Source of the DNA: Psammoneis japonica
Taxonomy: Eukaryota
Assembly: GCA_008632985.1 (NCBI GenBank)
Contig: QPGO01000148.1
Coordinates: 1-64,000, forward strand
Direction of reading: 5' to 3'
DNA length: 64,000 nucleotides
In this document: positions 25,831-60,464 of the stretch, piece after piece
Position numbering within the stretch: the stretch's first letter is position 1
Layout: every line of letters starts with the position of its first letter
Notes under the pieces: generated by a model
What the model was told of the DNA's origin: nothing
Databases searched by the model: none
The model's input: the letters and a program-made list of their open reading frames with translations, nothing else
Made by a program: the position numbers and the translations under genes

Positions 25831-26519
25831 CCGATGTACATGGACGAAGGAGTTGAGAAGAGAATCGAAAGTGAACAGTGGGTGCAGCAACAATCACTTG
25901 GGGGTGCAGTGAGGGCAGAAACACGGAGGTGCAACGTGCGGATGGACGGGGAGGAAGGATGGAATGGGCAGGGAGAGAAAATTGAGAAAACAATTAGAAT
26001 CTAGATTGATGGATGCAGGCGGCGATTTTGATCCAGAAAGTTGATTGACACACAATCCAGAAATTAAAATGGAGTTGAGCACACACATGAGGCTTGTCGG
26101 ATGGGGGGGCAAATGGTTGAATTGAGGAACACAGATGTTTGTTGTTGAATGTTTCAGAAAAGCTGGCTTGTCAAATCAGCACGATCTTGGATTGAAGGGA
26201 GAAAATGTCGGGTTTTATTTCAAGAAATCTTGACGGCCAGTGCGACACCTGGATCGTTGGTGTCCCAGATGTGAGCAGCAGCAAGAAAATCACACAAGGC
26301 GTTTTGTCCACATTTGGACTTTATCTTACCTCTCTTTTCATGGACATGCTTGTCAGAGCAAAATGTGGCATGTAATGTGTTGGTGTTGTTGGTGGCACAA
26401 TCTAGCATCGGCTGTTGCTGCCGTCATGTGGTCTGTTTCATTGTTGTTTTGAGCGAGCGACGTCTGGGAGTCGTGCGTGCGAATTCACTATTTGGAACAA
26501 TGACTGGTGTTAAGTAGTT

Positions 26520-40413: not shown

Positions 40414-41113
40414 TTACTCTGCCTTGAGCGCCGCAGCTTCGTCCCACAAATTCTGAAACAGAGCCGTACTGAGATAGCGTTCTCCAAAACTAGGAATCAC
40501 CACAACCACACGCTTCCCCTTGTTTTCAGGACGCTTTGCAACATTAATGGCTGCCGTTACAGCAGCTCCACAGGAAATTCCACAAAAGAGTCCCTCCTCG
40601 GTGGCCAGCGTCCTAGCCATGGCCATGGCGTCTTCACCCGACACTTGAATGACTTCATCCAAAAGGGAAGTATCAGCATTGCCTGGAATGAATCCAGCAC
40701 CTATACCTTGGATCTTGTGTGGGCCGGGCTTGCCACCACTGAGAACAGCCGACTCGGATGGCTCGACCGCTACAATTTGAAGAGCCGGATTGAGTGGCTT
40801 CAAATGCTGTCCACACCCCGTAAGAGTGAGTTCCTCCTGTGCCGACTCCACCCACTAAAATATCAACCTCACCATCCGTATCCTCCCAAATTTCAGGACC
40901 CGTCGTTTCCCGGTGGATCTTTGGGTTGTCGGGATTGTTAAATTGCTGAAGCAAAAAGCCATCGTCTCCGAGGCTACTGACAATTTCTTCGGCTTTGCCA
41001 ATCGCACCGCCCACACCTTTGGGTGCCGGAGTCAAAATGACCTCAGCACCAAACGCCTTGAGCAATACACGTCGTTCCATGGACATGCTTTCTGGCATGG
41101 TGAGGATCAGTTT
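40414..41113 (-). pseudogene. cysK: cysteine synthase (O-acetylserine thiol-lyase), 3' half; 4-bp duplication frameshift at 40824-40831
   Basis: [15 protein letters not shown]...QQFNNPDNP...GVGTGGT / [12 protein letters not shown]...[10 protein letters not shown]. Confidence 0.95.
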
Positions 41114-41675
41114 CACTGCAAATGAGAATCACTCTGAATAAGCTGTTTTCGCTCTAAATAAAAAATAAACAGAGCATTTTGCTCCGATTGCAAGTGCTAA
41201 ATAATTAATTGTGGCTTTGCTCTATTTAAGCCATAGTCAGAGCGACATGCTCTGTGTATAAGACAATCAGAGCAAAATGCCAACATTTGCCCTGTTCAAC
41301 CGCATTCAGAGGATGCCTTCGATTAAGTGCAATTATTCAGGGCATTCGCTTCAAATAACTGCAGCCTCCTGCGACCTTTTACATTCTCAGAGCAAATGGT
41401 TTTTCTTCAAAGCAAACGAACAATGAACACATGCACACACAATGAGACGCAATGATGGACGATTCAAAGCGTCATTGGCGCACATGCACGCATGCATTCA
41501 TGGTTGCCAGTCAATGCTCGTAATCTCGTCGTTTTTGTTTGCGGCGATCTCGACGAGCATCGTTGTTGCTCTGTTGTTGTCAATTGTCGCCTGTGTCGGC
41601 GCATCGCACACACAACACAATTTTTGCATTTCCACCTTTATGTCTGTGTGAGTCGTGGCCTCCACAGCCTTCTCC

Positions 41676-44600
41676 ATGTGCTGCAAACATTGCTTCTCGA
41701 CTGTTCCATTGACTCAACATGACAACTCCAACAGCATCGTAAACATGGGTGATTGCCTCCATTCCAGCAAATGTCTCAACCCGGAGTGTTCAGTTGATTC
41801 CTTTTTTGTCTGCGAATGCTGCTGGAACAGCAGCAACACAAACAGCAGGTGGTCGTCATCTTCCAGTTCTTAAAGATTGGAAAACCTGCGTTGAGCACGC
41901 CAAAACTCCAACTCATGTGCAATCCTTTAAAGCTTTGAAAGCCGCACCAACAAGCAGTGCAAATGCCGTGTGTGCGCCGGCGGAGCCTGCACACGACGAA
42001 TGTTGGTGCAACGATGACAATGACGCCTCTGTTTCCAAGAGCAAGGAGCCTTCCAACCAAGATGATTGGATTTGCGACGTCAATGATGCCGGCTCACGAT
42101 CCTCCATTGCGCATTGATGATCTCCGACAAGGTTTTGATCCGGACTCCAACAGCCCGGCCTTTTTTTGGTGCGAGCATTCGCACCCCGGACAAGGCATCC
42201 AGAAATTGACAGCTGGCGCTTTCGAATTGCCCGTCACCGAGGTGACCAAAGAAGAGGCCCATTTTTCACTTGTGATGGCTAGCCTGCTTTCACAACTCAC
42301 CGAGAAACAACGTGAATTGTTGGCAGAATGCATGCTGCAAGCCACAAACAGCCGTGATCCAGACTTGTCCATTTTTCGTTGGACTCATGTCCCCACTTCT
42401 GTGAAAGATTTTGAAATGTTGCATTTGTCCAGCAAACGTGCCATTGTGCCAAATTTGCCTCATCCTGTTCCCAGGAAAACCGATGATGGCAGTCATTCCC
42501 ATGTTTCCTTTAAAGACGTGCTTGCAAATGAGTTGGCAAAAGCCACGCAATTTGACAAGTTCTGTTTTGATGCGGACGTCATTGTTCAAGATTCGCAACC
42601 TGCCATTTCGTGCACACCGGCGGCGCATTCCTTGTTCATGGAACTTAAAGAAGATGTCGACAGTTTTGCATTGCATCTTTGGGTGCGAGAATGGCGTGAT
42701 GACTTTGATCCCAATGGCACGAAGAAGTCACGCAATCAAGTGTGGCTCAACACGCACACCTGCTGCCCTCCTCCCAATTCTTCCAGTGGACGCCACACCT
42801 GCTTCATGGCAATGTCGTCCAAGGGAGAAAATCATGAAGTTGTGGAGACAATGTTTGAACGCGAACTGCAGTCGTTGTCTGAAGAAAGCCATTGGTTTTA
42901 CCATGGCGGACTGCAGAAGCTCGCGCGGGTTAAAGCTGGCAAACTCAGTGTTTGTGTGGATCGGCCTGAACGTTCCTGCATGTTTCGTGTTGGAGACCAC
43001 AATGGCAGCTGTTCAACGTTTTGGGAACATGCCTGTCATGCAGATGGAAACTGTTCTTTCAATCACTTGCCTCATTGTCAGCTCTGTCGCAAAGCACATG
43101 TGAGCAACCATTTTAGCACGTCCGAGGATCCTTCTGATGTCGCCGACAATTCACAGGAAGAAGGAGCACCAGTGGATGGCGCAGTTGCAATCAATGTTCC
43201 TCCTGTTTCTAGCACATGTCCACACAATGCTTGTGCATCCTGGAATGTGCTCGACACTGCGTTTCGTTTTCTGGCTCCGGCTGACTGCCCCTGTTCATGT
43301 GACCAACGCGAAGGTGCACCGAAACCTCCCACTGGCAGGGAAGTGACTGTCTTCAACCCGTCGGCACATGACATCCAATCCACTCAAGACTTGGCCACAG
43401 ATCCATCCACATCGACCGATTCTTCTCGTCGCAGATGCAAACGCCAACGTGTGGCCACCCCAAGACAATGGTTGGCCTCCATCAAACTCACTGTTCCCTG
43501 GTTGCAGCAAGCGATCGTGTTTGCGCATCACAACATGAGAACACATCCGCCGGGCACCCCAAGTGCCAAGCGCTTTTGGACCAAAGCTAACCTCACGGCC
43601 CATCTTCGTACTTGTGCCATCATCCAACACCACATCGACACAGCGCACGCAGCTGCAAAATGCAATCTGCCTTGCCCAACACATCCAGCACCTTGGCTTG
43701 ATCCCAAAGCACTTTCACGTTGTCATCATGCACCAATGCACACCATTGGTCTGGGCAATGTTAAAAGTGATTTTGAAATGATGTCCAAATTGTTCTCTCG
43801 ATTTGAACTTCAGGCAACCTTTGGAAAGCAAGCAAACAAATGCTTGCGGTCCATCCAGTCCCTCCGATCAACCAAACATTTTGCGGCTCATCCACTGTCC
43901 ACCAGCAAGTGGGGCACAGGTCCCTGGGTCAGTGAAAATTACTTCTTTTGGGCAAGGACAGTAAAATTCATGGTTGCGCTGCCTGCGCTTCACCAACAAC
44001 GGGTGATGGACAATCACTCGGATTGTGCAGGTGTGTCACGGATGTTGCTTCGATTCGCTTCTGCCACACAAGCTTGTCTGAGCCAAGTCATGTCTTCGGA
44101 GCGCGTTGTTGGGGACCTTCACGAAATGGTTTTGACATGTTTGGATGCAATGGTCGAGATGGACATGTGGTTGATGAAAGCACCCTCAGATGAGGCAGAC
44201 AACGATGCCGTAGAAGGCGACGGTGAAGTTCAGAAGAAAAAGAAAAAAAGGCGAACTTTGTGAAATCTGTTTCACTTGGAATGCTGGGAGTCACGGAATC
44301 CCACCAACATGATGGACCGGCCATTCTGCATTGGGAGGGTGACGATTCTGGAGAAAGTGGTGTGCAAACTGTGAGGCCAGAGGTCAGCATCAAACGCAGC
44401 AATGCAGACTGGCAAACAATCGCTTTGCGTCACATTCACCAACAGGCGACCATTTCTTGGCTTTTAGAACGTGACAGTGAGAAAGGTTCATCGAAGAACA
44501 GACGTCTAGATGGCATCTTCAAAATCCACAGCAACTGGAACACATTGTTGGAGGCAAGACAGCAATGCCTTCCCTTTGCTGGCCTTGTGTCGTCCGATTG

Positions 44601-44955
44601 CACTGTGTGGTTGTTGTTTCAACCAGTGGGTGAAAAAGGAGCTGCTCGCTCCTCTGCAACTGCAGTTGCTTTAGAATTTGTGGATGAGGAAGGTGAAGAA
44701 ATTTTGGACTTGTGTTGGATGGCGCCAGTTCAAGCAACAGACAGGAGAAAATCATTTGATGCGGCAACAGATCTTTGCAACAGTTTGGGACATCAGTTTG
44801 TGCTGGCATTGCCAAGGATGGAAGATGATGGTGAAACTTTCCTAAACAGCTTTTATTGTGTCAGCCATCTGTGGAATGAAAGAACCAGAGATGGATGCTT
44901 TGTGAAAATGGAACTCAGCTTGGACGTTTTCGACGATTGGTTGACAGCCGGCTAA
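41676..44955 (+). pseudogene. CMC/EnSpm-type transposase, frameshifted (A-rich run near 44240)
   Basis: WRDDFDPN, VDRPER...HNG, PMHTIGLGNVK correspond to the CACTA DGF, DxPAR...HxG and MHxxxLGxxK motifs; Cys-rich N-terminus. Confidence 0.8.
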
Positions 44956-45158
44956 CCATCAACTGCTCTGTCATCCATCTCGGTTGACAATCCAGCCTGT
45001 GTGGGGGAGACAATGGCATGAGCAGTGCACGTGCTCCAATGGTGGATGGACCCGTGAAGGAGCAGCGCACATGCTCTTTTGTTTAAAGACGCGCCATTGT
45101 GGCCGACACGCAGCTAGCTGCGGGGGACAAGAAGGACATGCGAGCTGGGTGTCTGCTC

Positions 45159-48100
45159 TCATTTCATGTTCCTCTTTCTCTTTATGAAGTGGAGCTGCAC
45201 AGATTGGTCCCTCATTGCGTTTGACATTTTGTTTTTGGCCAAAATGTCCAACATCGCCTCTGGTGGATTAGACAGCAGTTTGTCAAAATTGAACTCAAAT
45301 GCAATTTGAATGGGACCATGATCCCAGGTCGACCCGGCCCAATCATTGTCCTCACACAGTTCTTTGGCAATCTCCTCCATCTTTTTTTCCTCACTTTTGT
45401 GTGAAAAGTTTTGGATCAATCCACCGGGAGGCAGCTCTTCGGGGTCACTGGAACCATCAAAGTGACAAAGAAAATTCGCCTCATCGTGGAAAACAAAAAA
45501 TGACATTCCTGCAAAACAGACATCGCAGCAGTTTACCCTCCCTTTGCTGATCCAGAAGTGAAACATTTTGCAAAGAATGTTCTCAACAAAACGAATGGTG
45601 AAGTGAGTGTCTTTCTTGTCATCACCCCCGGGGTTGTTCAACTGCACGGTGAATGCACCCTGTGTGGTTTGAGCCAAACGGAACATGTCCGCATCGTCCA
45701 TCTTGCCCAGTCCACATTCTTCGGCAATTTTTATGTCAGGGAGGGAATCCTTTTTGCAGTGGCAATGATGCAGCATCCAAATGGGAAGCTGGCCAATTTC
45801 TGCCATGATCGCAATCGAATGATTGAGACACAAGACGTCGCATTGCGGGGAGAATTCAGACAACTGATTCATCAGTTTCTTGTAAATGGAGACGATGTCT
45901 TTGTTTTGTGGCTTGTTTGCATGCTCATTCCAAATGTCACAAATCCACTTTCCCTTTTCATCATTCCGTTTTTTCCATTCAGCCTTGGTTGGCAAGGGTG
46001 GTCTCTTGCTGCGTGACGCACATCGCAGAGGGATGCCTCTAGAATGTGCCTCTTTTACGTGGACCATCATTTCGTGAATGAGATGTCCCAATCCGCAGGG
46101 GTCGCTTGGTGGCTGGAAGGCATTGACGGATGAAAGAACCAACGCAACTGCTCCAAAGCAACATGACTGCGCCGGGTGCACCTCGAAGCAAGTCTGAACA
46201 GCGACAATCTGCGGCAACGTAAGTGAGAATTTGTCAATCATTGCGACAATGAAGTGCAGAAAGAGCTGGTGGCATGACGTTGGTTCCATGTTGCAGTCGC
46301 CTTTTAATGCATCGATTCCTTTGCATCCCTCAAATCCTGTCAAGTGATCATGGACAATTGCCGGCTCCAGTCGCTGCCGGTGCACGGGCAAGTTTTGGCA
46401 GGTGCGAATGGCTTGTGTTGTGATGGGCAAGGCAAGTCGAATCCTCTTCTCCGCAGTTTCTACAGAACTGCGGGTGCAAGCAATGACAGCATCTCTTGTT
46501 TCTCCATCATTTGTGATTTTTGAAACAGACAAAACTGGGGTCATGTCTTTGTTTTGGCCGTTGCATTCATCCGAGTGGCAATCCGTAATTTTGCCAAATT
46601 TGGCATTTGCCAGACGCAGTGCCTCCACGACATCATTTGCTGAGGCATCCGGCAATGAACCCGCATGGTCTTGACGTTGGTTTTTCATCTCTTCATCGTG
46701 CCACAATCTAGATGTAAAAGCAGGATTCAGTGTCTCCGCAATTTCAGACATTGACTCAAAAAAAGGCATTGCTTCCTCAGTCCCTTTCCCAACTCGAGGC
46801 CGTGCAACGCCATCAGCATGGCCTTCCCTTGTAGTGCTTGTGTTGGTGCAAACGCCGAAATCTGCAAAGTGGTCCTTTGGTTGACGATGGGTCCCAGTTT
46901 TCTTGGGCTTGTTGCTTTTCTTTTTCTGAAAACGTTTTCTCTTGCCAGTTTTCTTGCCAACATTGCCTTTCCTTGTTTTCTTTCCCTGGTTGCTTTTCGA
47001 CTCACGTTCATGGCATTTGTCAATCAGCACGCGCGATCGGTCCCAGTCAATGCGGCAGATTGGGTGTTTGTTTGGAAAGTGGTCAAGCACCAACATGAAG
47101 TCATTGCAATGGTCGGAATCAACATCATGCAAGGACCATTTGATGTCAGTTTCATCCTGTCCAAGTGTCAACGCCAAATCCAGAATTGGCACTTGGCAGT
47201 GGGGGATGTCTGCTCTGCTTGCCAAGTGAACCTGCAGTTTCGACTGGAAGACAACATGCAGATGGGTGGCACACTTTTGCCTGCATTCTCCAGACAGTTT
47301 CCCCAAATTGTCAAGTGCTTTGGCTTTTCCAGAATTACAACGGAAGTGAGCACTGTTCATCTCCTCAAACACAAAAACAACATTGAACATGTTTTTGGCA
47401 TGCAAGCTCTGTTCTTGCAGCAGGGAACGGGACAACACTGTTTTCTCCCGCCGAGTCTTGCAGTTGCCAGTGAAAGTTGGACGCTGCATCTGCAAGGGCA
47501 GTGCTGCCTCAAAAGCGCTTGAATGGCAATCAGATGATTCGTCTCTGCTTCCATTGGGCAAATCAGAATCGGAGAAATCAATGGGAAGTGCTGACACAAC
47601 TGCGCCATCATGCCAATGCGATGATGATTGGTCGCTCTGACTTGAGAAAACAGAATCAATGACATCACTGTTTGTTGATTGTTCCTCGACGTGATGCACA
47701 GAAGCCGAGTCCTCATGGCGTTTTGCTTCTTCCCGCATGTGCTGCACACTCAGCAAGCAAAGCAACCGGTCTGCTGGTCTTCGCTTGCGAGGAGGTGGAG
47801 ACCGTCCCAGGGGAGATTCCAGGCTGCGTGACCTGGATGTGGCAGATCTTGTGCGGTGTGAGATTGGACTGCTGCTTCTGTTTCTGCGGAGTTGCATTTG
47901 ACAAAATGGGACCATGCCACTGTTGGTGGGTTGACTTGTTCTGCTTGAACTCCTTGAGCGGATGCTGTCATCTGCAGAACGTGCGGGAGGATGGCTTTTG
48001 TCCCAACCGCGACTCTCAGATTTCCTCAATGCACCCAACCTGTGTGAGCGCAACGAATGCCTGGGTTTGCGAACACGCGATCGACCCCGACACCTGGATG

Positions 48101-48854
48101 GTGACCTCAACATTGTTGGAGACCTGTTTTTTGACCTGGAGGGTGACCTGCACCTGGATGGTGACCTGTGCGGTGACCTGTGTCTACGCCGAGGTGACAA
48201 TCTAGACCTTTCATTGGAAGAATCCAGAGACCTTCGACAAGACCATTGCGGTGAACTGGATGGAGACCTTTGGCGTGACCTCTGCCGCGATTGCAATCGA
48301 CCTTGGTGATCCCTGCATGGAGAGCAGGGAACAGCACCACAACGTTCCCTGCAACTGTGCCGGGAACTTGAGTTGTGGCAACCCATGGATGGTGACCGAC
48401 ACCGTCGCCGATGCCTTCGACAAGAATGAGACCTAGACCCAGAACAACGAGACCTTGATTGACAAGGAGAACCACGCAAAGAAGCTCCAGAATGACAATG
48501 ATGTCTGGTCCGATGACGCGATCGAGACCGAGAACTTGACAAAGAGCGAGACCGAGAACTTGACCAAGACCGGGACGGCGATTGACACCTTCGTCGTTGG
48601 TGGGAATTCGACCTCGACAGGCATCGCCGTTTAGACAGTCTGCGTTCCCTGGATCCGTCGTTTCGATTTGACCACAACCGACCTGTGGAACTTTGAACAG
48701 GCGATTCGGATCTTTGACGAATCAAGCGACCCGGCGGATCTCTTGATGGACGCGCACTCCTTGTCCTTCTTCCCTTCGGAGCGCCGGATCTGCTCCAAGC
48801 GGGAGCGTCACATTTGCCTTTTCTGTGATGCATGGATGGTTGGAATTTGAGCAA
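45159..48854 (-). CDS. 1231-aa RS-rich protein with TET/JBP-like and HhH/ADDT-like motifs (hypermutated cargo)
   Basis: DGVARP, CHSDECN, RDAVIACTR, FVENILCK; collinear with the 220-3122 protein. Confidence 0.6.
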   Translation of the reverse strand: MLKFQPSMHHRKGKCDAPAWSRSGAPKGRRTRSARPSRDPPGRLIRQRSESPVQSSTGRLWSNRNDGSRERRLSKRRCLSRSNSHQRRRCQSPSRSWSSSRSRSLSSSRSRSRHRTRHHCHSGASLRGSPCQSRSRCSGSRSHSCRRHRRRCRSPSMGCHNSSSRHSCRERCGAVPCSPCRDHQGRLQSRQRSRQRSPSSSPQWSCRRSLDSSNERSRLSPRRRHRSPHRSPSRCRSPSRSKNRSPTMLRSPSRCRGRSRVRKPRHSLRSHRLGALRKSESRGWDKSHPPARSADDSIRSRSSSRTSQPTNSGMVPFCQMQLRRNRSSSPISHRTRSATSRSRSLESPLGRSPPPRKRRPADRLLCLLSVQHMREEAKRHEDSASVHHVEEQSTNSDVIDSVFSSQSDQSSSHWHDGAVVSALPIDFSDSDLPNGSRDESSDCHSSAFEAALPLQMQRPTFTGNCKTRREKTVLSRSLLQEQSLHAKNMFNVVFVFEEMNSAHFRCNSGKAKALDNLGKLSGECRQKCATHLHVVFQSKLQVHLASRADIPHCQVPILDLALTLGQDETDIKWSLHDVDSDHCNDFMLVLDHFPNKHPICRIDWDRSRVLIDKCHERESKSNQGKKTRKGNVGKKTGKRKRFQKKKSNKPKKTGTHRQPKDHFADFGVCTNTSTTREGHADGVARPRVGKGTEEAMPFFESMSEIAETLNPAFTSRLWHDEEMKNQRQDHAGSLPDASANDVVEALRLANAKFGKITDCHSDECNGQNKDMTPVLSVSKITNDGETRDAVIACTRSSVETAEKRIRLALPITTQAIRTCQNLPVHRQRLEPAIVHDHLTGFEGCKGIDALKGDCNMEPTSCHQLFLHFIVAMIDKFSLTLPQIVAVQTCFEVHPAQSCCFGAVALVLSSVNAFQPPSDPCGLGHLIHEMMVHVKEAHSRGIPLRCASRSKRPPLPTKAEWKKRNDEKGKWICDIWNEHANKPQNKDIVSIYKKLMNQLSEFSPQCDVLCLNHSIAIMAEIGQLPIWMLHHCHCKKDSLPDIKIAEECGLGKMDDADMFRLAQTTQGAFTVQLNNPGGDDKKDTHFTIRFVENILCKMFHFWISKGRVNCCDVCFAGMSFFVFHDEANFLCHFDGSSDPEELPPGGLIQNFSHKSEEKKMEEIAKELCEDNDWAGSTWDHGPIQIAFEFNFDKLLSNPPEAMLDILAKNKMSNAMRDQSVQLHFIKRKRNMK

Positions 48855-49524
48855 GCAGATGCTGCAATGAAAAACAATGAGAGCAGAACAGCTTCACAAC
48901 TCCTTTGTCATTTGTGCAAGAGTGTGATTGTGCGATGATGATGTCGCCTTCATCTGGTCGTGATTGAGAGATGATGTATGTTGGGTGAGTCAGAACACCG
49001 GAATCCGGAATTTTGCATGTCATCCCCTCACGTGGCCAACTGGTTGTGGCCGCCTGCAGCGCCACAAACAGAACACCACAAAAATTCTGCATTCATTGTA
49101 GAATTTAATGAGAAAACAAGTCCCCTCTTTTCTGTGACATCACTGCATTTGCCGCATGTTACAATGACACAAATGTCGGAAAAGCGTGCATCCACAACAC
49201 CGCCGCTGACACCGCTGTTGTCATCAAACTTTGCTGTTCATGCAATGCTGTCATCATTCATCCTTCCATTGCATGTTGTCATTCTCATCAACTTGTTGAC
49301 AAGTGTTGACAACATTGTGACCTTTGGTGAAGGTTCATTGCGAGACACCACCAGAACCGAAACTTCATCGCTGCTGTGAGAACAATGCTGAGCTCACGGC
49401 GCAGTCTGCACATTGTTTCTTTATCTCGCATCTCAGACAATTTGGTGTGCATGCTGCACTTCGTTGACTCTTTACAATCATCATCAGGTGCTGCCACGAA
49501 ATTGGTTGCAGACAAAGTCAGCAA

Positions 49525-50757
49525 CTTCCCTGTGTCTCCGCGTCAACTGCTGACAATTGCACAGCAACGGACGAGTGGGACTGCCAGTCCGTCGCCCAGC
49601 GACATTCCGCTGATCGGTTTTCAACAATGAGACCTGGAGAACTGGCTGGGGCACCCTCGTTGTGTTGTGCAGTTTGAAGAAAAGGGGACCGGCTGATCTG
49701 GGTTGTGTTGGCAGACGGCGCAAGCTCCTTTTTCCTTGACATTGTCAAGAACATGTGTGTTCCAAGGCCACCATTGTCGGTGGGTCGTCTCCGTCTGTCA
49801 CATCTCTTCCCTGTGTCTCCGCGTCAACTGCTGACAATTGCACAGCAACGGACGAGTGGGACTGCCAGTCCGTCGCCCAGTGATGTTCCGCCAATCGGTT
49901 TTCAATGACAAGACCTGGAGAACTGGCTGGGGCACCCTCGTTGTGTTGTGCAGTTTGAAGAAAAGGGGACCGGCTGATCTGGGTTGTGTTGGCAGACGGG
50001 GCAAGCTCCTTTTTCCTTGACATTGTCAAGAACACATGTGTTCCAAGGCCACTGTTGTCGGTGGGTCGTCTCCGTCTGTTGCATCTCTTCCCTGTGTCTC
50101 CGCGTCAACTGCTGACAATTGTGCAGCAACGGACGAGTGGGACTGCCAGTCCGTCGCCCAGTGACATTCCGCCAATCGGTTTTCAACAACAAGACCTGGA
50201 GAACTGGCTGGGGCACCCTCGTTGTGTTGCACAGTTTGAAGAAAAGGGGACCGGCTGATCTGGGTTGTGTTGGCAGACGGGGCAAGCTCCTTTTTCCTTG
50301 ACATTGTCAAGAACACATGTGTTCCAAGGCCACTGTTGTCGGTGGGTCGTCTCCGTCTGTTGCATCTCTTCCCTGTGTCTCCGCGTCAACTGCTGACAAT
50401 TGTGCAGCAACGGACGAGTGGGACTGCCAGTCCGTCGCCCAGTGACATTCCGCCAATCGGTTTTCAACAACAAGACCTGGAGAACTGGCTGGGGCACCCT
50501 CGTTGTGTTGTGCAGTTTGAAGAAAAGGGGACCGGCTGATCTGGGTTGTGTTGGCAGACGGCGTGAGCTCCTTTTTCCTTGACGTTGTCAAGAACACACA
50601 CTTTCCAAGGCCACTGTTGTCGGTGGGTCGTCATCGTCTGTTGCATCTCTTCCCTGTGTTTCCGCGTCTGTCGCCCACCGACAGTCCGCCAACTGGGTTT
50701 TCAACAACAAGACCTGGAGAACTGGCTGGGGCACCCTCGTTGTGTTGTGCAGTTTGA
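49525..50757. repeat. 281-bp tandem repeat, ~4.4 copies, inside the CACTA element
   Basis: Unit starts at 49525, 49806, 50087, 50368, 50649; last copy internally deleted. Confidence 0.95.
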
Positions 50758-50800
50758 CGCAAACAAGGCAGCAGCAAAGGGAAGCGAGGATTCGCCTGCG

Positions 50801-53800
50801 ATGTCAAGGGACAATGGAATGAAAGCTCTTGCCAAAGCGGCTGTTGTGGCTTCCCGAGAAGAGAATGAGGAAATCCGGTTGTCACAGGAGGAGAACAACC
50901 ACAATTCCCAGGAAGAAGATGTGGAAGAAGAGGAGGAGGAAATGCCGGAGGAAATGCGGACATCAGAGGAGGACAAGGAAGCTGTGAATTCTAAGGAAAT
51001 GGACAATGATGCTTCTCAGGAGAAGAAAGATGCGGGTTCTTTACCAAAATCATCAAAATCCAAGGAGGGGGACATTCAACACATTCCCACCAAGCTCCGG
51101 CGTTTTGTGAATGCAATCAAACATGACATGTCAAAGCGTGTGTGGGACAATGTCCACCACACTTGTCCCTTGTTTACCGTGGTCAACCCAAGCACAGAAC
51201 CAAAATCACTGACAACACTGGCAAATTCTGGACGCGGGCCGAACAATCGCGGGAAGAAACACATTTTGTTGCATCACAACCAGAAGGGGTTGTCATCCGA
51301 CTTCGGCAAAGAAGCAAGTAAAAAAGCAAGGGCAGCTGTAAAGGATTTTCTTCTTCGTGAATTTAATCAAGAAAACGAAGGCGACATTGTCGACTTGTTG
51401 AACAACAAACACACTCACATTTTGGGAATTTGTGCAATGCCAAAAAATCAAGAAAGTGGCAAACTGGCAACTGATCTTGTCGCTGCATTGTTGTGTCGGT
51501 GCATTGAATTGGTGCCAGCAACAATTGTTGACCATGTTTGAGTCGACAGAGGAGCCAAAGTGCACAACCATGGGTTGTGCCCCTTCCTGATTAGCCTGGC
51601 TCAATCTGTCGGCCACACGGTTGTTGGCACTTGGGACACAATGCTGCATTGTCAAGTCAAGCTCAAACAACACTGCTGTGAAAGTTTGGGTTTCGAGGAC
51701 ATCACAGAGGAAATGAATGAGGAGCCCTCTTGGGAAAGAGTGAGACACCATTGGAGTTGGAATGCTTTGATCAAAGAGGACGGAGATGACACCAGGGCAC
51801 TGATGGTGAAACGCAGAGTCACCACACGTTGTGCAAAAATTGCGTTGCCCATCTCTCACACAGAGGATGATTTCCAGTGCAATGTAAAACATTGGCGAGA
51901 TCGTGTTGGGTTCTGGAGCAGCAAGAAGAGACCCGCCGATCAACACCAAGATTTGGTGGATCAAGAGAAAGACCTCATCTACAAATCGTCAGTGGTGATG
52001 GTTGGTGATGCGACACTGGATTCTTTTAAAGATTCCTGGCAAAAACACATGGATGGACGCCAATGGTTTGACACTGGAAAGTGCATTCACGAATCCTGCG
52101 AATGTTGCGTGGGTGCAAGTGACGCCAACCAAGTTAAGTCACATTTCGAGACAACGGCTTTGTTTGCCGCAAGCGTCAATTTCTCCTGCCAAATGAGCAA
52201 ATTGGCAAATGATGAAACATGGAAAAGAGCGGCATTTTGATCGAGGACTTCCGAGCTGGCTCAAAGAGCGAAATGTGTGAGGGGCAAGTTTGACGCAACT
52301 GCGGAGTCGGGAACTGACAACCGGAAGTGTGTTCTCAACCCCAAGCATTGCCAACGGAGTCGGAGCGATTCAGATGAAGACATGGAAATGGAAATGCCTT
52401 TGGGTGATGATGGAGCCACACGTCAACTTCTTGAAAGCATCCATTTGAAGTGCAACACGTGCAACATGGTGTTTCCCATCGATTACAACCAGGAAGATCA
52501 AGGTGGACTGTCACCAGCAGCAACTTTGTTTTCAGCGCTTGCGGGACCTTGCCATGATCATGCAATGTGTGTTCCGGGCAAGTGCCCCATTTGCACTGCA
52601 CAAAGCAAAAGTGCAGTGTACGAACTGCTGGTTGGTGCTGCATGAGAAGACAGAGAAACTCTGAAGGACCTAGAGAAACGCCAAGTGCGGTTGAACAAAA
52701 AGGATTTCTTTCTGCCACCTTTGCGACACATTGCAATTTGGTGCAAAGAAGCGGAACAACTGCATTGGTGCCAGATCAATCGGTCATTCCGACAATGTCG
52801 TTTTACAGAGCTGGCGAAGGAGGCGATGCTTGACAAAAAATTCTCTGCAAGGGGAAACAAGAGAGAAAAGAAGGAACCGAAACCACAAGAGGGAGATGGT
52901 GACCTAGAGGAAGAGGAGTCCGAATTGGAACCAGAAGATCAAGGTCTCCTTGTGTCACAAAGAAAAGTGTTGTCTGCCAGGGACAAGAAATGTCAAGATC
53001 TACGTCATGAGGCGAGGATGTGCTGTGAGGATGCCAAAGAATTGGAACGGCTGCATGGTTTTGAGCAGGTCGATCGGGCCACACGGCCGGATGAAAGTGA
53101 GGTGCCAGGTGATGCTGTTGATTGTGAAGGACCAGTTTTACATGGATGGTTCGAAGATTTCAAGCACGGCAGAACATTTGCTGGAGACTGTTTTGGAGCG
53201 ACGAATGACAAGGACATTGGAGGAGGGCCGATGAACCTTGTTCGAGCCGCAATTGAGGAAGCTAAAAAGAAACCTGACACAAGAGTGATTTTCAATGCCA
53301 GACAAAAGAGGCAAATTGGCAAAAGAGCTGATCACGCAACAAACAATGGTCAGGTTCACAAAGTGAGATGGCTGACAGCAAAGGAGCCAATGAAGGAGGG
53401 GCTTGTGGCCGATGATGATTTTGAAGGTCCGGAGGGAACGCCAGCATTTGTGGGGGTTGGCACAAGGAAGAAACCGTGCCATCACACCATGGAGTGGGCA
53501 AGAGCCAATTTTCAGCAGCGATGTCCCACAGTGCACAAGGCCATGTGTGATTGGGAACCAGGGAAGAAATGGTGCAGACTGCCGGAGGGTCACGTGTTGG
53601 ATAAAAGCGGGCTGGAATTTCCCAGCTCGGGACCCCCAGTCAAACATCAACAAGGGGAGAAAGACACGTGCGTGTTTTTGAGCCTGGCCAGTGTCCCAAA
53701 TTACATTGGAGATGAAAGGATGGAGCGACACATTGTGAATTGCATGGATCATTCTTGCAGATCAGAGAACACCAACAACAAACGGTTGGAGTTTGCCGTT

Positions 53801-54199
53801 GGCATGTTGTTGGGACAAAAGCAGAAGCTTTGTCCTCCACTGGCTGCATCAATGAAGTGGCGCGCATGCAAGAAGCGTCAGAAAATGGCAGCTGGCAAGA
53901 GGGGATTCTTCGATTTGACCACCCACGTTGCCGATGACATCGTTCTTTGTCGGTTGACAAACAATCACTGCATTGCTTTGCACGGTGGTTGGATCTTCGA
54001 CTCCAATCATGAATTCGCTCTTCCGGCAAAAGACATTCAGTGGTTGAATTGGTGTTTGGGGAATGACACATTTGAAACAGATGCACTGGCAGAAGATCCA
54101 AAATCAGCAGTGGAGGAAGCAGTTTTTTTTGAAATGCCGAAGGCTGTCCAAACAAGGTTGCGTAAATGCAAGCGGCAAGACAATGCAACCACAGGTTAA
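50801..54199 (+). pseudogene. ~1130-codon GNAT acetyltransferase + papain-like (C39-like) peptidase fusion, broken by three in-frame TGA
   Basis: ORFs 50579, 51560, 52277 and 52685 share one frame. GNAT-like NHGL..FLI and CCESLGF (=YYESLGF). Peptidase QQGEKDTCVFLSLAS, NHCIAL, WIFDSN. Confidence 0.65.
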
Positions 54200-55569
54200 T
54201 TCTTCTCACTTGGCATGGTTGTCGGGGCCAACGATTTCCAGGCATGCAGGCGTTTGCGAGTCACCAATGTTTTGCTGACAAGCCCGGCCTTTTCTGCAGC
54301 ACGCAACAGTTGGCACGTTTGCGGCAGTGTGTGAGGCTTCCCACCAAGGACATTCATCATGAGCCCCTTGGTTTGAAAACACGTGCCCGCGGGTTGATCC
54401 GCAAAATGACTGAGCAATTTGTGCACGCCGCTCATTTCCTCGTCCGTGTGCGGGTGTGCGTTTAACCAACAGCGGCATCCATCAACAATGCATTGGCTCA
54501 CAAGAGGCTTCGTCCACTGATCGTGCTTTTGGACTTTCACGTTGTCCAATGGGGTGGCGCAAAGCAAAGGAAGGAAACGATTCTTGGTCGCTGGCGTCAG
54601 ATCACTTCGTTTCACAGGAGCAAACACAAGCAAGCCGCTGCCCCACGCATCTTGCTCTGTCACTTTGAGTTTCTTTAGGACAGTTTGTTGACGCTTGGCT
54701 GTGAGACAAAACTGTGAAGTTGCAGTCTTCCATGTCATGACAATTTGTTTGCAATCCATGCCCGTGGAGGTGCCACGATTGGGAAGAGATGATGTCATGC
54801 TGCAAAACCGATTGTGATGATCGGGTTTTGCTAAAACTGTGCCAGCTTGCAGCCATTTGCCCATGGCAACACAGGCAACAGCATCAACAAAATGCTTGGG
54901 TTTAGCCAGGCATGACAGCATGCATCCACTGCGTCCGCCTGTCACAATTTCGTCAACAACAATCTCAAAGGAATGGCGGTGAGCCAACCGACCAAGAGAT
55001 TCTAGAAAGTTGTCGCTGAGTGTTGCACCATTGTTTGCCAGCATTAATTCTAAAAACAATGCAGCGATTGGCACCTTCTTTGCAGCCTGCATCAAACAAC
55101 GGAGATGAATGTGGTTGAGACAATCGTTTTCGCACTCACTGAGCTCCGCGGAGCTCAGAGTGCCTGGCACATGATGCGGCAGCACAATGGTGTGATTGCG
55201 TGTAAAAGAGTCAAACACGTCGTCCGGATGCATTGCTGCGCTCGGACCATGTTCTGCACTGAACGTGCTGGCAGTCCAACAGTGGACAGGCCCATGATCA
55301 CCGGCCACATAACTTCCACATGCAATCAAACATCCGTCATTGTGCCCTCCCGTCACAGAATTAATTGCAAACAAATTTGCATCGGAGCCGTTTGGCATCA
55401 CTTTGTGCAGCAGCAATTCACCATCAAAGTGACGAAAAACAACTTCTTCTAACTGCTTGTGGTGGCCGATGTCCATGGAAGAATTCATCAAATCTTCGCC
55501 ATTGCGTTTTAAGCCACGCGGGCTAACGGCAACCAAATTGCACCCCCAATTGTTTGCCATGTCGTCCAT
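54196..55569 (-). CDS. class-III PLP-dependent aminotransferase-like protein (hypermutated cargo)
   Basis: NGSDAN, GSYVAG, LFLE, VVDEIVTGGRSG, MGKWLQAG. Confidence 0.75.
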   Translation of the reverse strand: MDDMANNWGCNLVAVSPRGLKRNGEDLMNSSMDIGHHKQLEEVVFRHFDGELLLHKVMPNGSDANLFAINSVTGGHNDGCLIACGSYVAGDHGPVHCWTASTFSAEHGPSAAMHPDDVFDSFTRNHTIVLPHHVPGTLSSAELSECENDCLNHIHLRCLMQAAKKVPIAALFLELMLANNGATLSDNFLESLGRLAHRHSFEIVVDEIVTGGRSGCMLSCLAKPKHFVDAVACVAMGKWLQAGTVLAKPDHHNRFCSMTSSLPNRGTSTGMDCKQIVMTWKTATSQFCLTAKRQQTVLKKLKVTEQDAWGSGLLVFAPVKRSDLTPATKNRFLPLLCATPLDNVKVQKHDQWTKPLVSQCIVDGCRCWLNAHPHTDEEMSGVHKLLSHFADQPAGTCFQTKGLMMNVLGGKPHTLPQTCQLLRAAEKAGLVSKTLVTRKRLHAWKSLAPTTMPSEKN

Positions 55570-56447
55570 GGCGTCGTTTGGGATTGTTCAATGCGCAAAA
55601 GAGCAAGATGCAAGATTCAAGAAGAGTCCCAAAAGATGATTGGATGGAAAAGAGGGGAGGGATCGCAGCTCTGTTGATGGGCTTACACAGCGCAGAGGAT
55701 TTGTGAAAATGAGGTGGAGCAACGCATGTGCTCTCAATCACCAAAAGCGCAAAACACGTGCATTCTGCTGCACTGCGCATTTGCAGACAAGCCCTGCACG
55801 CAGGGCCCCACACATGTTCCACACGCTGAAAGAGCAGCACGCGCGCGCACATGCACTCCCACCCAATCGTGTGATTGCACAATGCATTTCATTCAACAAC
55901 GTAGATGAAGCAAGCACTTTAAAAAAGAACACACATGAAAAATCAAACTTCAATTGTGGAAAATCATGCATTCAAAAGTGAACCAATGAGAACCCAATTT
56001 TTGTTCAAGGAAAATTTTGTTTCAAATGGGAGGAAAGAACAATCTTCTTAACACAACAGGTCGACATGGTTGTCAATGTTCATTTCAGAACAACAATGCT
56101 TGATTGAAACAATGAAAAATGCAGAAAAGAACAAAACTGAATGCAATTCAAAAACCGTGCAATGAGAACATGCAACCGTGACTTTGCAATTGTGTTGAAC
56201 AGATTCGGCTCGTCCCGGACCATCCACAAGCACAAAAAGCGATTAGAAGTCGAAAACACAATGACAAATTCATTTCATCAGACACAGGTGTCGGTCGTCA
56301 GCCTTGATCTTACAAACACATCGAGGGCAAACACTTCAACAGAGGGAAACACAACCCCGTCAAGGACAGATGTTGCAACAGTGGGGAACACAGGTGGGTG
56401 CATTTGAAATCAAAGTGTGCGTTTGGAAGCTAACATTGTGATCTGAC

Positions 56448-57743
56448 ATGCAGTGGGAAGCTTCCACAACAAATCCAGGGGAAAAAATGACAGCACCCAA
56501 TCGTCCATTGGATCATCCAAGAGACTTTTTCCATCCGACGACAGGGGCCAACCCCACAAGACCAGAGGATGCTGCTCTTTTGTGGTCATGCCGAAAGGCA
56601 CGTCCACAACTTGGTGAGGTGGAGACGGTGCCACCCAATGGCAAGAAGATGCTGCAAGAGGTGGCACAAATCCGGTCGTCCCTTCGACAACACGTCATGA
56701 CTCAACACCTGGAGGGCTGTCGGAAAAATGCAATGGACAAGGAAGTGGCAATGCCATCAACAAACACCAATCCCGTCACAACAGAAGACTTCAAAAACAT
56801 TCTGGCAAGCATGGACAACACAACCGAGAATCAGCAGCTCGTGTGTCAAGTTTTCCATGCCTTTCATCACAACAGAGGATGGCTGGCTGCTGCCATTGAC
56901 AAATGGTTCACCGCAAACAACACGAAGCTCATGCTGCACGCCACGGACGCTTCCAGCAAACCTCGCAAAATGTGTCGCGATGACAGAGGCGGGTTTGCTG
57001 TGGTGGCACGCCAAGCCAAATGTCAAATGATTAAAACGTTCATGGAGTTTATGCTGCGGAAAGCAGGCTGGTGTGTGGCAACTACAATGCACAAGAGCAA
57101 CAAGGAGAATGGAGGTAAAACACATGTGGCCGTCCCCGCTGCAACCAATGCGGAAACAACAACCAAAGCAAAGTTTTACGTCGTGTCGATGAAACCAGTG
57201 GCGGTGAGTTAGTCGCACATTGTTTGTTTGTCCTTTTGTTGACAATCTTGTTTGGTTGACGACTTCGTCCCCATTTCCGGTCCTTGACAGCAGGAGGAGA
57301 ACACCGAAGCATCAAAACAAGTTGCTCAGGGAGCATCCAGCAAAGACATTGACATTGCATCCCTTGTGGACCTCACGAAAACAGCAAGCATGTTGTCAGA
57401 ACAAATGGGAGTTCTGCTGTCCAAGGAAGATTTGCTCCAGTCGATTCGTGGCAGCATGACAGTCACCAGTTCATCCCAAATGGTCAACGAAGAGATTGTG
57501 CTTGATCCGCAACATGAGTCCAAAACTCAGGTGTCAACACTGACCATGGACACCGCGCTAAATTGCCCATCCGAACCAACGGCAAAGCGGAAGTTAACCG
57601 AGAAGGAGAAGGAGGCAGAGCAAATTCCTCGTCGGGAGCGCAATGATGAACTAGAACCCCTCACCATGGATTTGGATGTCATCGATGGTTGGAATTCCAA
57701 TGACGAAGAGTTGGCAGAAATGGTGTCACAGGTGACTGTGTGA
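56448..57743 (+). CDS. hypothetical cargo protein, probably two exons (intron starting GTGAGT near 57204)
   Basis: 254-aa ORF plus a downstream charged ORF; no family recognised. Confidence 0.4.
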
Positions 57744-57959
57744 TTTGGTGGTCCAATTGCTGTGGTGTTGGATGGCTCTAACCAACTTCCGCTTTGATGC
57801 CTTGTTTGGCTTGTCAGACACAGTTGTCTGGGTCCCCTTGTTGCAGGACGGAACAAGAGCCCGGGAGCGCTCCAGCGGTGAGAAAAATGTGTTGTGTCAT
57901 GCGGCTGAATTGCACGTCGCTCACACCACTGTTCTTCATGCAAAAGGTTGATGAGATGG

Positions 57960-58530
57960 ACGAGCCAACTGGTGCAAAAGAAAAGGTGAGAGCATTGTCG
58001 GTGCTCCAGCTGTCAATTTGGACTGTTGCTCCAACAGCTCTTTGGCCTCATTGGGTTGCTGGATGCCACACCAAACCATCCCAGACAGTTGAAACACTGG
58101 AGCGAGCACAAAAAAAACAAGTGAGTGAACAGAGTTCTGAGGCAGAGCGCGACACATGGATTGGATTGACCAATCACACTGCTCCTGCTGTTCTTTATGA
58201 CCAGGCAAATGAGGTGGTTGACAGTGGCAACAATGAAAAGGTGAGAGCAATGTCGGTGCTCCAGTTGCAAATGAAACAATTGCTCCAACCACTTTGGGGC
58301 GTCATTGCTGGATGCCAGACTCAACCATCCCCAGTTGCTGAAATGCCAGAGAGAGCACCACAGAAGATGGCAAGATCACATTGTCTTGCAGCCAATTGTG
58401 CAATTCATCGGACACGTCTCACACAGCCATTGTTGTTTGCAATGAGAAAGGTCGAAGAGACAATGGCAAATGGCGCAAATGAAAAGGTGAGAGCATTGTT
58501 GGTGCTCCGGATTGCCATTGAGAAGTTGAT
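57960..58530. repeat. three diverged ~250-bp units sharing GAAAAGGTGAGAGCAwTGTyGGTGCTCC
   Basis: Core motif at ~57980, ~58235 and ~58481. Confidence 0.7.
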
Positions 58531-58889
58531 CTGACGGCATTCAATGTGTGTCATGATGGCATTTCTTTTGCAGACTCAACCAGCCAACCACTCTAAACCA
58601 TTGTTAAATCCATTGCAAAACAAAGCGGTGAGAATGCATGATGAAGTCGTGCGGATTGTGCGCAGCATCTTGGAAACATCACCTCTCACTTTGTTGTTTG
58701 TTTGCAACAAAGACAAAGACAGCAAATGACAAACGCACACACAAAACTACAACACTCGTTGTGGCTCAAGTGGATCAAACAACTGCTTGCAATTTGCAGG
58801 CACAGAGCAAACGTCATTGTTGATTTGGCATGCCTGTTGTTGTGTTGTCTTGTTCACGCACGCAAACCAATTGTGTTTGTTTGTTTGTG

Positions 58890-59205
58890 TTTGCAGTGCA
58901 AGTGCGAGGAGGCTCACTTGTTCCATGCCTTGGTCCATCAAGATGACGGAAAATATTTCACTCAAGCACACTTCAAAACCAACCCACTGTTCCCTGCAAA
59001 GTGCTGTGGCGAAAAGTGTGATGTTGTTTTTGGATCAAGCAGTTACAAGGTTGGACAAAGAAAGGCAGTTTGGGTTTGCATGAACACATTGAATGGTTCT
59101 TGCAATTGCAGGTTTGCATTGTGTGTGCAGTGTCATCAAAAGACCATGTCAGCTGCATCTAACAAACGGCGCCGAAGGACAACCCGAAACAACAACAACA
59201 AATGA
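58890..59205 (+). CDS. Cys-rich zinc-finger-like exon (CCGEKC...WVC...CRFALCVQC) with basic tail
   Basis: Cys spacing; note some Cys may be mutated Tyr. Confidence 0.35.
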
Positions 59206-59782
59206 CAAGGCAACGCAACACATGCGCACGACGCAACACAATGTGCAATTGCTTGGGATTGATTTCACCGGCACAGTCAGGGTTCGGCGGATGTGTTTGT
59301 CAACAGAGTCAATCGAAGCACAGCTTCGTAAATGACAGTTGTTCAGAGCATCAGCAAATTTGTTCACAGTTGTGATCTGTTTAAATGGAGAGGCTGTCGT
59401 CATCCGTTGTTCATTCAGAGCTTTGCTCTAGTTAAATGTCCGTTGTTCATTCAGAGCTTTGCTCCAATTAAATGGAGATTCCACGGGCATCCAAACATTG
59501 TTCAGAGTCGTGCTCTGATTGAATGGACACAATCACAGCAGCGCTCTGAATGTCAGCACAATGCTCTAATTTGCAAATCAATGCTCTGGATGCAATGCTC
59601 CAAACAAAATTCTATGGCTTCGAATGACCAAATTTACTCTGATTGTGCTCTGTGTGGGCGTCATTGCCTCAATTGGCTCTCATTTGCTCTGAATGTCCCA
59701 CATTGTGTCGGGACAATTTAAACAAAGCGTTGCTCAGAATAAAATGTTCGGAGCATGAATGAAGAGAATCTCATCTGCAGTG

Positions 59783-60174
59783 TTGCATCCCTTGGACGCT
59801 GCCACCATGGCGAGACCGACACCCGCATTGCCCGACGTGGGCTCCACCAGAGTCGTTTTGCCAGGTTCAATGTCACCGCGCTTTTCGGCTTCCGCAATCA
59901 TGGAAAAGGCAATGCGGTCCTTGACGGAATTGGCGGGATTCAAGGACTCGAGCTTGGCGACCATTTCAGCGACACAACCGTCTGTGACCTTGTTGAGCTT
60001 CATGAGTGGAGTGTTGCCAATCAGATCCAACATGGAGTCGGCAATCTTGGACTGGGCGTGCAGTGCAACATGACGAGTCTTCTTGGTGGAGGATGACAGA
60101 GAAGGAACAGGCGCAAAGGCACACGACAAGGCCACGAGAGAAGCAGCGACTGCGGCCAAGCAAAGGAACTTCAT
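59783..60174 (-). pseudogene. cysK: cysteine synthase 5' half with bipartite plastid-targeting presequence
   Basis: Signal peptide + [40 protein letters not shown]. Confidence 0.95.
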
Positions 60175-60440
60175 CGTCTTCCGGCAAAATGTTGTGTGGG
60201 GTGAAGATTGAAGATCTTTCGCACATGGGCTCGCCCCGGCTTGGGAGGGCGGACAGCTTCAGGCTCGAATTATTTGACAGTGTGGAGTTCGCGCAGTGTC
60301 GCACTGGTGGGGCCCTGACAAGAATGGACACTGAACAAGCCAAGTGCAGGGGATCTGAGTCCTGTTGTGCAGTTGGAAGAGCTGACAATAGAGAGAATGA
60401 ACAATCTCTCTAATGTGCGTGTGCCGCACTCTAGATTGCC

Positions 60441-60464
60441 AGAGAGAGAGAGAGAGAGAGAGAG
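60441..60464. repeat. (AG)12 microsatellite
   Basis: Direct reading. Confidence 0.95.

Follow-up and report, generated by a model that had tools for sequence, protein, structure and literature searches.

Surviving TA dinucleotides in TpA-depleted domains of Psammoneis japonica DNA suggest a graded sequence preference of the mutating agent

Introduction

The closest described system is the TpA hypermutation of the chlorarachniophyte Bigelowiella natans. According to the main text of the preprint, 231 of 302 new mutations in mutation-accumulation lines fell in two integrated viral regions, and the viral-region mutations were, but for one, A>G or T>C, all of these at TpA (10.64898/2026.01.13.699255). 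These de novo events were seen in single-copy integrated viral DNA of clonal lines, and an ADAT2 homolog was put forward as the candidate enzyme (Mettrop et al., 10.64898/2026.01.13.699255). That main text contains no flank analysis and mentions neither CpG nor 5-hydroxymethyluracil (5hmU), although a flank analysis may exist in the figures or supplements; our literature search returned no other paper on TpA-specific hypermutation. Here we analyze 64,000 nucleotides of Psammoneis japonica DNA (GenBank assembly GCA_008632985.1, contig QPGO01000148.1, positions 1 to 64,000; this whole stretch is referred to as the window), and in particular the region 42241..44960, which lies within a degraded gene copy and has kept only 19 TA dinucleotides. 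TpA hypermutation as such is already known, and the window is a further, nearly saturated instance of it. Since the phenomenon has been described for B. natans, the new detail is the hierarchy of flanking bases among the TAs that survive.

Several other systems share part of this picture. RIP (repeat-induced point mutation), found in Neurospora and other ascomycetes, hypermutates repeats domain by domain, through transitions that favour a dinucleotide; transposon genes are ruined by it, and it can spread to unique DNA nearby. APOBEC3 and AID, which act on single strands, leave enzyme-specific flank signatures in hypermutated foreign DNA. TadA and ADAT2-ADAT3 act on an A preceded by T/U (U33-A34 in anticodon loops) and convert it to a base read as G, and ADAR hyper-editing is likewise an A-to-G change that favours a 5' U. 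We know of no natural enzyme that acts on a defined DNA motif to cause A:T>G:C changes.

Results

Two domains of the window are depleted of TpA

The window is eukaryotic DNA; among its contents are genes for a cysteine synthase and a proteasome beta subunit, together with a fragment of a dynamin. Two domains within it have lost most of their TA. In the first, 6001..26250 (D1), the observed/expected ratio (O/E) is 0.00-0.14 for TA, 1.4-2.1 for TG/CA and 0.14-0.70 for CG. The second, 41501..64000 (D2), includes the region under study, reaches the end of the window and has a TA O/E of 0.02-0.18. Taken together, the two domains have TA at 0.00-0.18, TG and CA mostly at 1.4-2.1 (the exception is one kilobase with a CA O/E of 1.02) and CG at 0.14-0.95. 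In the remaining, normal domains (1-5750 and 26501-41000), TA O/E is 0.25-0.78, and the borders are sharp, at about 5.75-6.0 kb and 26.25-26.5 kb. In absolute counts, there are 206 TAs in 42,750 bp of depleted DNA versus 764 in 20,250 bp of normal DNA. AA, at an O/E of 0.86-1.76, is not depleted; the depletion is confined to TpA. Both D1 and D2 thus show what was seen in B. natans, TpA depletion with CpA and TpG enrichment in discrete domains.

Surviving TAs are biased by their flanking bases

Of the 19 TAs left in 42241..44960, the first-pass annotation had tallied 13 by hand as YTAR (Y, pyrimidine; R, purine) and a single one as RTAY. The tally is exact on recount: the contexts are TTAA (4), CTAG (3), TTAG (3), CTAA (3), TTAC (2), and TTAT, GTAA, GTAG and GTAC (1 each), with GTAC as the sole RTAY. 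The probability of at least 13 YTAR among 19 is 8.3e-5 if the expected share is one quarter, 7.7e-6 with the share found in the normal domains of the window (155/764) and 7.5e-7 with that among eight relatives of the gene whose DNA is unmutated (138/829). For at most one RTAY in 19 it is 0.03 or 0.014, depending on the baseline.

The bias is not peculiar to this region. The 70 surviving TAs of D1 comprise 36 YTAR and 4 RTAY, and the 136 of D2 comprise 71 and 5. Over both domains, YTAR accounts for 107 of the 206 TAs and RTAY for 9, compared with 155 and 189 of 764 in the normal domains (chi-square 97, p 8e-22); when 42241-44960 is left out, the counts are 94 and 8 of 187 (binomial p 8e-20 and 4e-14, respectively). 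Block-bootstrap 95% intervals are 0.46-0.58 for the YTAR share and 0.02-0.07 for RTAY. As a control, the four flank classes are about equally common when every YR step in the depleted domains is counted (RY 0.24, YR 0.24, YY 0.26, RR 0.26). TA O/E is uncorrelated with flank bias among normal 1-kb windows (rho -0.13).

We expressed survival relative to the normal domains, taking every YR step in identical flanks as the denominator, since the two transition processes at work (see below) interconvert TA, TG, CA and CG. By this measure, survival is 0.63 for TTAA, 0.34 for CTAA/TTAG, 0.24 for GTAA/TTAC and 0.17 for CTAG, and then falls to 0.077 for ATAA/TTAT, 0.059 for CTAC/GTAG, 0.048 for GTAC, 0.037 for ATAG/CTAT, 0.010 for ATAT and 0.009 for ATAC/GTAT. 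Equal depletion of all NTAN tetramers, named beforehand as the result that would speak against a preference, is not what the depleted domains of the window show, given the range from 0.63 (TTAA) to about 0.01. The bias is not mere A/T richness, since it depends on orientation: TTAA survives at 0.63 and ATAT at 0.01. The flank bias is therefore confirmed as genuine and strand-symmetric, and it is replicated in both domains and against three baselines.

Two short segments stand apart from this division into domains. Inside the left normal domain, 2001-3000 is an island of partial depletion (TA O/E 0.25) with 17 TAs, of which none is RTAY and 5 are YTAR; 41001-42000 resembles it (TA O/E 0.31; RTAY 2, YTAR 7). 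Both may represent early-stage or edge hypermutation.

The preference is graded and extends to the +2 base

In a Poisson model with one rate per half-site, splitting Y from R is a large improvement over a uniform rate (likelihood ratio [LR] 144.7, p 2.5e-33), and four base-specific rates improve again on the Y/R split (LR 69.4, 2 degrees of freedom [df], p 8e-16). Fitted hit rates by the base 3' of A, or equivalently by the complement of the base 5' of T, are 2.46 for T, 1.51 for C, 0.97 for G and 0.16 for A, roughly 15:9:6:1. In the same order, the rates are 2.52, 1.68, 1.10 and 0.36 in D1 and 2.42, 1.38, 0.87 and 0.04 in D2, and the order T>C>G>>A is unchanged with either normal domain as baseline. 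As an additional baseline we used the DNA of eight unmutated relatives from metagenomes (TA O/E 0.47-0.68). With it, the gene alone gives an LR of 31.7 (p 2e-8), and all depleted DNA gives rates of 2.60, 1.48, 0.73 and 0.29 for T, C, G and A.

There is also an effect at +2, where A occupies 53% of survivor half-sites versus 25-28% in controls (p 8e-11). The best-protected half-site is TAAA (survival 0.50), followed by TAGA (0.26) and TAAG (0.24), while TAYY and TAGT survive at about 0.02-0.05; TACG, at 0.15, is the highest of the TAC-N contexts. The original claim, that TAY is hit and YTAR is spared, was right about the purine/pyrimidine bias. However, the Y/R division is coarse, and both the four-base grading and the +2 base are needed to describe the data. 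Moreover, YTAR is spared relative to other contexts but not absolutely, as the survival of CTAG (0.17) and CTAA/TTAG (0.34) makes plain.

TpA was lost by mutation in place on DNA

Repeat copies within the depleted domains record the changes. Neighbouring copies of a 281-bp tandem array at 49525..50763 (+; about 4.4 copies) differ by 22 events, 14 of them TG<->CA swaps. A 492-bp tandem duplication at 22465..23449 (+) shows 5 TG<->CA swaps, 3 TA<->TG/CA and 10 CG<->TG/CA differences. Two smaller pairs on the same strand, 7788-7943 / 8120-8275 (within 7788..8275) and 16518-16594 / 16821-16897 (within 16518..16897), contribute 3 swaps and 5 swaps in 77 nt, respectively. Six close pairs from the depleted domains, aligned over 1,568 nt, differ by 63 events, namely 27 TG<->CA, 4 TA<->TG/CA, 18 CG<->TG/CA, 6 other transitions and 8 transversions, and A-to-G outside TpA is rare in close repeats. 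In total, nine depleted-domain pairs carry 33 swaps in 1,960 nt. In seven normal-domain pairs, two of which aligned badly and contributed no differences, there are 4 swaps among 275 events in 2,553 nt. When recoded as purine and pyrimidine, the repeats of the depleted domains, the 281-bp array included, reach 99.0-99.4% identity; at the nucleotide level the figure is 82-94%. Where one copy has TG and another CA, the simplest reading is that an ancestral TA was hit independently on either strand. The depletion of TA is mutational, took place in situ on DNA and is specific to TpA. As in B. natans, TpA changes by A>G or T>C; alongside it, CpG decay forms a second process in these domains.

A public DNA run (X1) gives a wider view of D2, which is multi-copy in it: across 41501-60176 the summed depth runs from 335 to 1,787, and past that point it is 75-96. 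The 1,543 paralogous contigs of the run that fall on D2 (at least 90% likeness) differ from it by 299 transitions and 28 transversions. Among 40 of the 327 differing positions that were listed, 29 events comprise 11 TG<->CA, 12 CpG-type, 3 TA-involving and 3 others. The stretch at 60177-64000 has a TA O/E of 0.06 in spite of its low depth (75-96), so the depletion is not limited to multi-copy DNA.

The low CpG O/E of both domains falls to 0.14-0.25 at 9-16 kb, and among the differences between repeat copies CG<->TG/CA accounts for 26 events versus 39 derived from TA. This pattern suggests decay of methylated cytosine in the same chromatin as the loss of TA. A segment of about 130 nt is common to the normal domain at 32022-32148 (+) and to depleted DNA at 17983-18116 (-), at 91% identity in purine/pyrimidine code; one GTAG of the normal copy is GCAG in the depleted one, although so short a segment is of little use. 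A search of the window for diverged repeats by purine/pyrimidine recoding yielded no new large repeat.

The gene under the region is a dead copy

By tblastn, the region under study falls within a degraded copy, 41854..45018 (+), of a gene whose protein family, about 1,100-1,200 aa in length, is unannotated. We found 56 homologs, all but one of them at 37-55% identity (full range 26-55%), and most are 900-1,260 aa in size. The reading frame breaks near 44191-44239, in an A run, and a paralogous contig has an extra A at 44242. The product contains 0.3% Tyr, versus 1.5-3.9% in the homologs, with Cys, His and Met raised and Ile lowered. At 21 columns where Tyr is the majority residue, the window copy has His at 10, Cys at 6, Tyr at 3 and Phe at 2, so that 16 of 21 have become His or Cys. 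By a stricter definition, 11 of 14 Tyr columns are aligned and 9 of these are Cys/His; at the strict columns, the 15 of 55 homologs that are lowest in Tyr have at most 2 Cys/His each. The Ile columns (Met 3, Thr 1) are uninformative. With its frame broken and conserved Tyr lost, this gene copy is dead.

The TAs that remain in the gene appear to be ancestral, neither newly made nor selected, to judge from the alignment. Twelve of 17 match homolog consensus residues (alignment table judged by eye), and five belong to NTA codons, in which A>G would not alter the residue. A 5' T precedes each of the three Tyr codons that survive: of the Tyr sites with a 5' T, 3 in 6 are kept, versus 0 of 13 others (Fisher p about 0.02, hand calculation).

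As to what the family is, the Pfam scan of this gene family matched no family. In 25 sequences, D426, D429, D513, C552, C555, H773 and E838 are invariant and H768 nearly so, in the layout D, D, CxxC, Hx4H, E. The core was modelled with a predicted local distance difference test score of 67 and a predicted template modelling score of 0.61. RAG1/RAGL entries were the best full-length matches and formed the top rows of a Foldseek search with this core, at E 0.17-1, with none at E <= 0.001. VIA likewise gave RAG1/RAGL a Z of 6.3-6.7 over 271-282 residues, which is under the tool's guide value of Z 8. We regard the family, tentatively, as possible Transib/RAG-like DDE transposases, a group in which an RNase H-like core carries D, D and E together with a CxxC...HxxxxH zinc site. 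The family is common in marine metagenome contigs, some of them longer than 1 Mb.

D2 takes in an exon of a host gene

A cysteine synthase (PALP) gene straddles the border of D2. Its middle and 3' parts lie in the normal domain, at 40417..41128 (-; PALP profile 79-294; TA O/E 0.38-0.47), and its 5' part is at 59785..60027 (-; Pfam profile positions 3-79) in D2, with about 18.6 kb of TA-depleted repeats between the halves. The 5' piece has no TA at all and reads GNAG and KGC versus GNTG and KGY in the solved plant enzymes (7n2t, 1z7w), both changes being of the TA>TG type. Hypermutation has thus taken in a host exon, and the cysteine synthase gene may be dead.

Discussion

A probable sequence preference of the agent acting on TpA in situ

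We judge it probable that the region is part of a dead transposase-like gene in a domain hypermutated in situ at TpA, and that the survivors display the sequence preference of the agent. In this explanation, TpA would have been turned into TpG or CpA across both domains by the process reported in 2026 for B. natans. A TA would be hit fastest where the A precedes a pyrimidine, T ahead of C; a G in that place would slow the reaction and an A would slow it by a factor of about 10-15, with a second A at +2 adding protection. The same rule would hold on the opposite strand, such that TTAA and TTTAAA-like sites survive and ATAT, GTAT/ATAC and GTAC vanish. The mechanism that we prefer is an enzyme that would read one DNA strand at a time, with the motif 5'-T-A-Y(-Y), and would convert A to a base read as G; deamination of adenine to inosine would be the simplest chemistry. 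The data themselves establish the depletion, that it arose by mutation, its confinement to TpA, and the flank hierarchy with its symmetry between strands, whereas the reading of single strands, the chemistry and the enzyme are inferred. An enzyme-like preference, as suggested in the first-pass annotation, does fit the data better than chance, selection or re-creation of TA. Three general points weigh on the other side. A single 64-kb window supplies all of the evidence, the flank distribution of the ancestral DNA is an assumption, being taken from normal domains or from relatives at 37-55% protein identity, and it is through the shared signature that the process would be identified with that of B. 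natans.

The comparison with B. natans, as far as the main text of the preprint goes, is close. In both, TpA alone is hit and becomes TpG or CpA, so that discrete domains are poor in TpA and rich in CpA+TpG; the DNA affected includes genes of transposon type and can be single-copy. The depleted DNA of the window contains the multi-copy transposase-like gene and a weak fragment of a Copia-type reverse transcriptase in D1, at 11254..12027 (-; RVT_2, E 2.5e-5, under the Pfam cut-off), and the cysteine synthase exon and low-copy DNA are depleted too. What the window adds to that main text is the +1/+2 flank hierarchy, near-saturation (TA O/E down to 0.00), CpG decay and a host exon within the domain. 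It shows the process to be near-saturating, to run alongside CpG decay and to be able to take in a host gene.

Adenine or thymine

Duplex sequence cannot separate A>G in T-A-Y from T>C in R-T-A, and the earlier remark that oxidation of T is equally compatible by strand symmetry therefore holds. On the thymine route, which we rate as a possible but less favoured chemistry, the T of R-T-A would be modified, for example to 5hmU or 5-formyluracil by a TET/JBP-type enzyme, and would mispair with G to give T>C; the A>G changes would be the same event seen from the opposite strand. All of the sequence results are strand-symmetric and fit equally well a preference for 5' A > G > C >> T before T. 5-Formyluracil mispairs with G, and dinoflagellate 5hmU is reportedly enriched at TpA and TpC. 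This route shares with the preferred explanation the difficulty in the direction tests discussed in the next section, and 5hmU, as noted above, goes unmentioned in the main text of the B. natans preprint.

One strand or the duplex

The claim that the target is the A in T-A-Y combines a bias, which holds, with a single-strand reading, for which the evidence is divided. An additive model of rates, as for an enzyme acting per strand, has a deviance of 14.4 on 12 df, and a multiplicative model, as for recognition of the duplex, 18.1; with relatives as baseline, the values are 25.3 and 26.4. The per-strand model predicts TG at YTAY sites and CA at RTAR sites. Consistent with this, the ratio (YTGY+RCAR)/(YCAY+RTGR) has a median of 1.43 in 21 depleted 2-kb blocks versus 1.14 in 11 normal ones (p 0.001), and in the 281-bp array the majority state is the one predicted at 6 of 6 sites with unequal flanks. 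The product asymmetry among excess tetramers, 801 versus 26, is also in the predicted direction, but we do not rely on its size: palindromic controls scatter by about 40-85 counts, and the estimate moves with the choice of baseline and with the way in which CpG loss is apportioned.

Other observations count against per-strand action. Tyr codons in YTAY context became Cys and His in the ratio 4 : 5, whereas at least about 72% Cys is predicted. There is no product asymmetry in the gene itself (1.21 versus 1.21 in relatives; blocks 1.10-1.19), and the domain-wide asymmetry varies with the baseline (N1 1.20, N2 0.93) and could be inflated if CpG decay is flank-dependent. Finally, the multiplicative model fits almost as well as the additive one.

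These observations are what would be expected if the palindrome R-T-A-Y were bound as one site, as by a dimeric DNA-modifying enzyme, with either strand altered at random; the half-matching YTAY and RTAR would be bound less well, and YTAR least. In support of such duplex recognition, the direction of change in Tyr codons is independent of the flanks (Cys 4 : His 5 at YTAY, Cys 2 : His 5 at RTAY), and no flank class lacks TG<->CA swap sites (YR 11, RY 10, YY 8, RR 6). In contrast, the excess of 1.43 over 1.14 would then need an implausibly skewed ancestral ratio, by our arithmetic on the counts, the additive model is slightly better, above all at TTAT/ATAA, and the majority states of the 281-bp array agree with per-strand action. 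We give duplex recognition about one chance in four overall; between the two modes, per-strand action receives somewhat more than half of the weight.

Selection, new TAs and RNA editing

It is very improbable that the bias reflects something other than target preference, namely survivors kept by selection on codons and stops or new TAs arising in A/T-rich spots. At first inspection, such an origin has some appeal: 10 of the 17 TAs in the gene straddle codons in the manner of NNT|AAA, where A>G would give Lys -> Glu, and survivors are A-rich at +1 and +2. However, D1, in which no intact gene was found, has the same bias, and the copy in D2 is dead, with its frame broken and 16 of 21 conserved Tyr lost. 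The five survivors in NTA codons, the 12 of 17 that agree with the homolog consensus and the dependence on orientation (TTAA 0.63, ATAT 0.01) all point away from selection and re-creation, and an equilibrium model of creation and decay underpredicts GTAA/TTAC and ATAA/TTAT (hand calculation).

Hardly any weight remains for an ADAR-like enzyme acting on double-stranded transposon RNA, with the changes entering the genome by reverse transcription: the Copia fragment within D1 and the 5' U that ADARs favour, according to the Discussion of the preprint (10.64898/2026.01.13.699255), speak for it, but adjacent tandem copies differ by swaps at fixed positions, which suggests that they mutated in place once duplicated, the host exon and low-copy DNA at 60.2-64 kb are also depleted, a 5' A is never tolerated (AA O/E 0.86-1.76), a 3' G is not favoured as we would expect of ADARs, and the de novo events described in the preprint were in single-copy integrated DNA.

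Comparison with other known systems and the nature of the agent

RIP turns CpA into TpA and so enriches TA. Here, TA is destroyed and CpA/TpG are enriched, which is the opposite direction, and low-copy DNA is hit as well; RIP was rejected on the direction of change. APOBEC3 and AID make C -> U in 5'-TC, CC or WRC (W, A or T), unlike the A:T -> G:C changes at TpA in the window. ADAR has an RNA substrate, tolerates a 5' A and prefers a 3' G. In contrast, TpA is strictly required here, a 3' T is favoured, then C, then G, and DNA itself is altered in place.

For tRNA deaminases of the TadA/ADAT type, the TAC preference of TadA had been offered as a parallel. This parallel is weak. The 5' T of the TadA/ADAT signature is present, but the 3' context is not that of their substrates: in eukaryotic A34 tRNAs, position 35 is G, C or A, often A and never U, whereas here a 3' T is hit most and a 3' A least. 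TAT is hit more than TAC, and TACG (U-A-C-G), the TadA tRNA site, is the best-surviving of the TAC-N contexts. The mismatch in 3' context lowers the case for a tRNA-like specificity, not for an adenine deaminase as such; we know of no natural DNA activity with this pattern. Pfam scans of 236 open reading frames (ORFs) of the window, a few of which were scanned twice, detected no deaminase domain.

A bolder possibility, which we hold only tentatively, is that a natural enzyme of an undescribed class, distinct from the ADAT2 candidate, deaminates adenine or modifies thymine in DNA in a sequence-specific way, with a 5'-T-A-Y-Y preference unlike tRNA-type ADAT/TadA substrates. Its targets would be chromatin domains and not repeats as such; it would work side by side with CpG methylation decay and would spill into host genes such as that for cysteine synthase. 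If that is true, the flank hierarchy would be a fingerprint for biochemical identification. The fingerprint (3' T > C > G >> A, protective A at +2, strand-symmetric) gives assays of candidate agents of chlorarachniophyte TpA hypermutation a quantitative read-out, and in our reading it does not favour tRNA-type ADAT specificity. Moreover, loss of RTAY with TTAA retained should be a sharper detector of hypermutation than TpA depletion alone.

Other features of the window

Most of D1 and D2 had no recognizable content in the Pfam scan of the window ORFs. The depleted domains contain 109 stop-to-stop frames of at least 120 aa, and long open frames are expected in every frame there because TAA and TAG are nearly absent. 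One of them, at 45159-48854 (-; 1,231 aa), had no homolog among 8,000 scored candidates and matched no Pfam family; it is probably open merely through the lack of TAA and TAG. A weak class-III aminotransferase fragment in D2, at 54199-55587 (-; E 1.1e-5, under the cut-off), may be another host-derived piece.

In the normal domain, 26859-31823 (+) is a 1,655-aa open frame with no Pfam match that contains Pro/Thr-rich repeats of 12-84 nt (27.9-28.4 kb) and about 15 repeats of 108 nt, or 36 aa (29.2-31.7 kb). An inverted repeat at 38306-38671, with 183-nt arms that are 77% complementary and have no spacer between them, lies immediately upstream of the frame for the proteasome subunit, where the window has its kilobase of highest A+T content.

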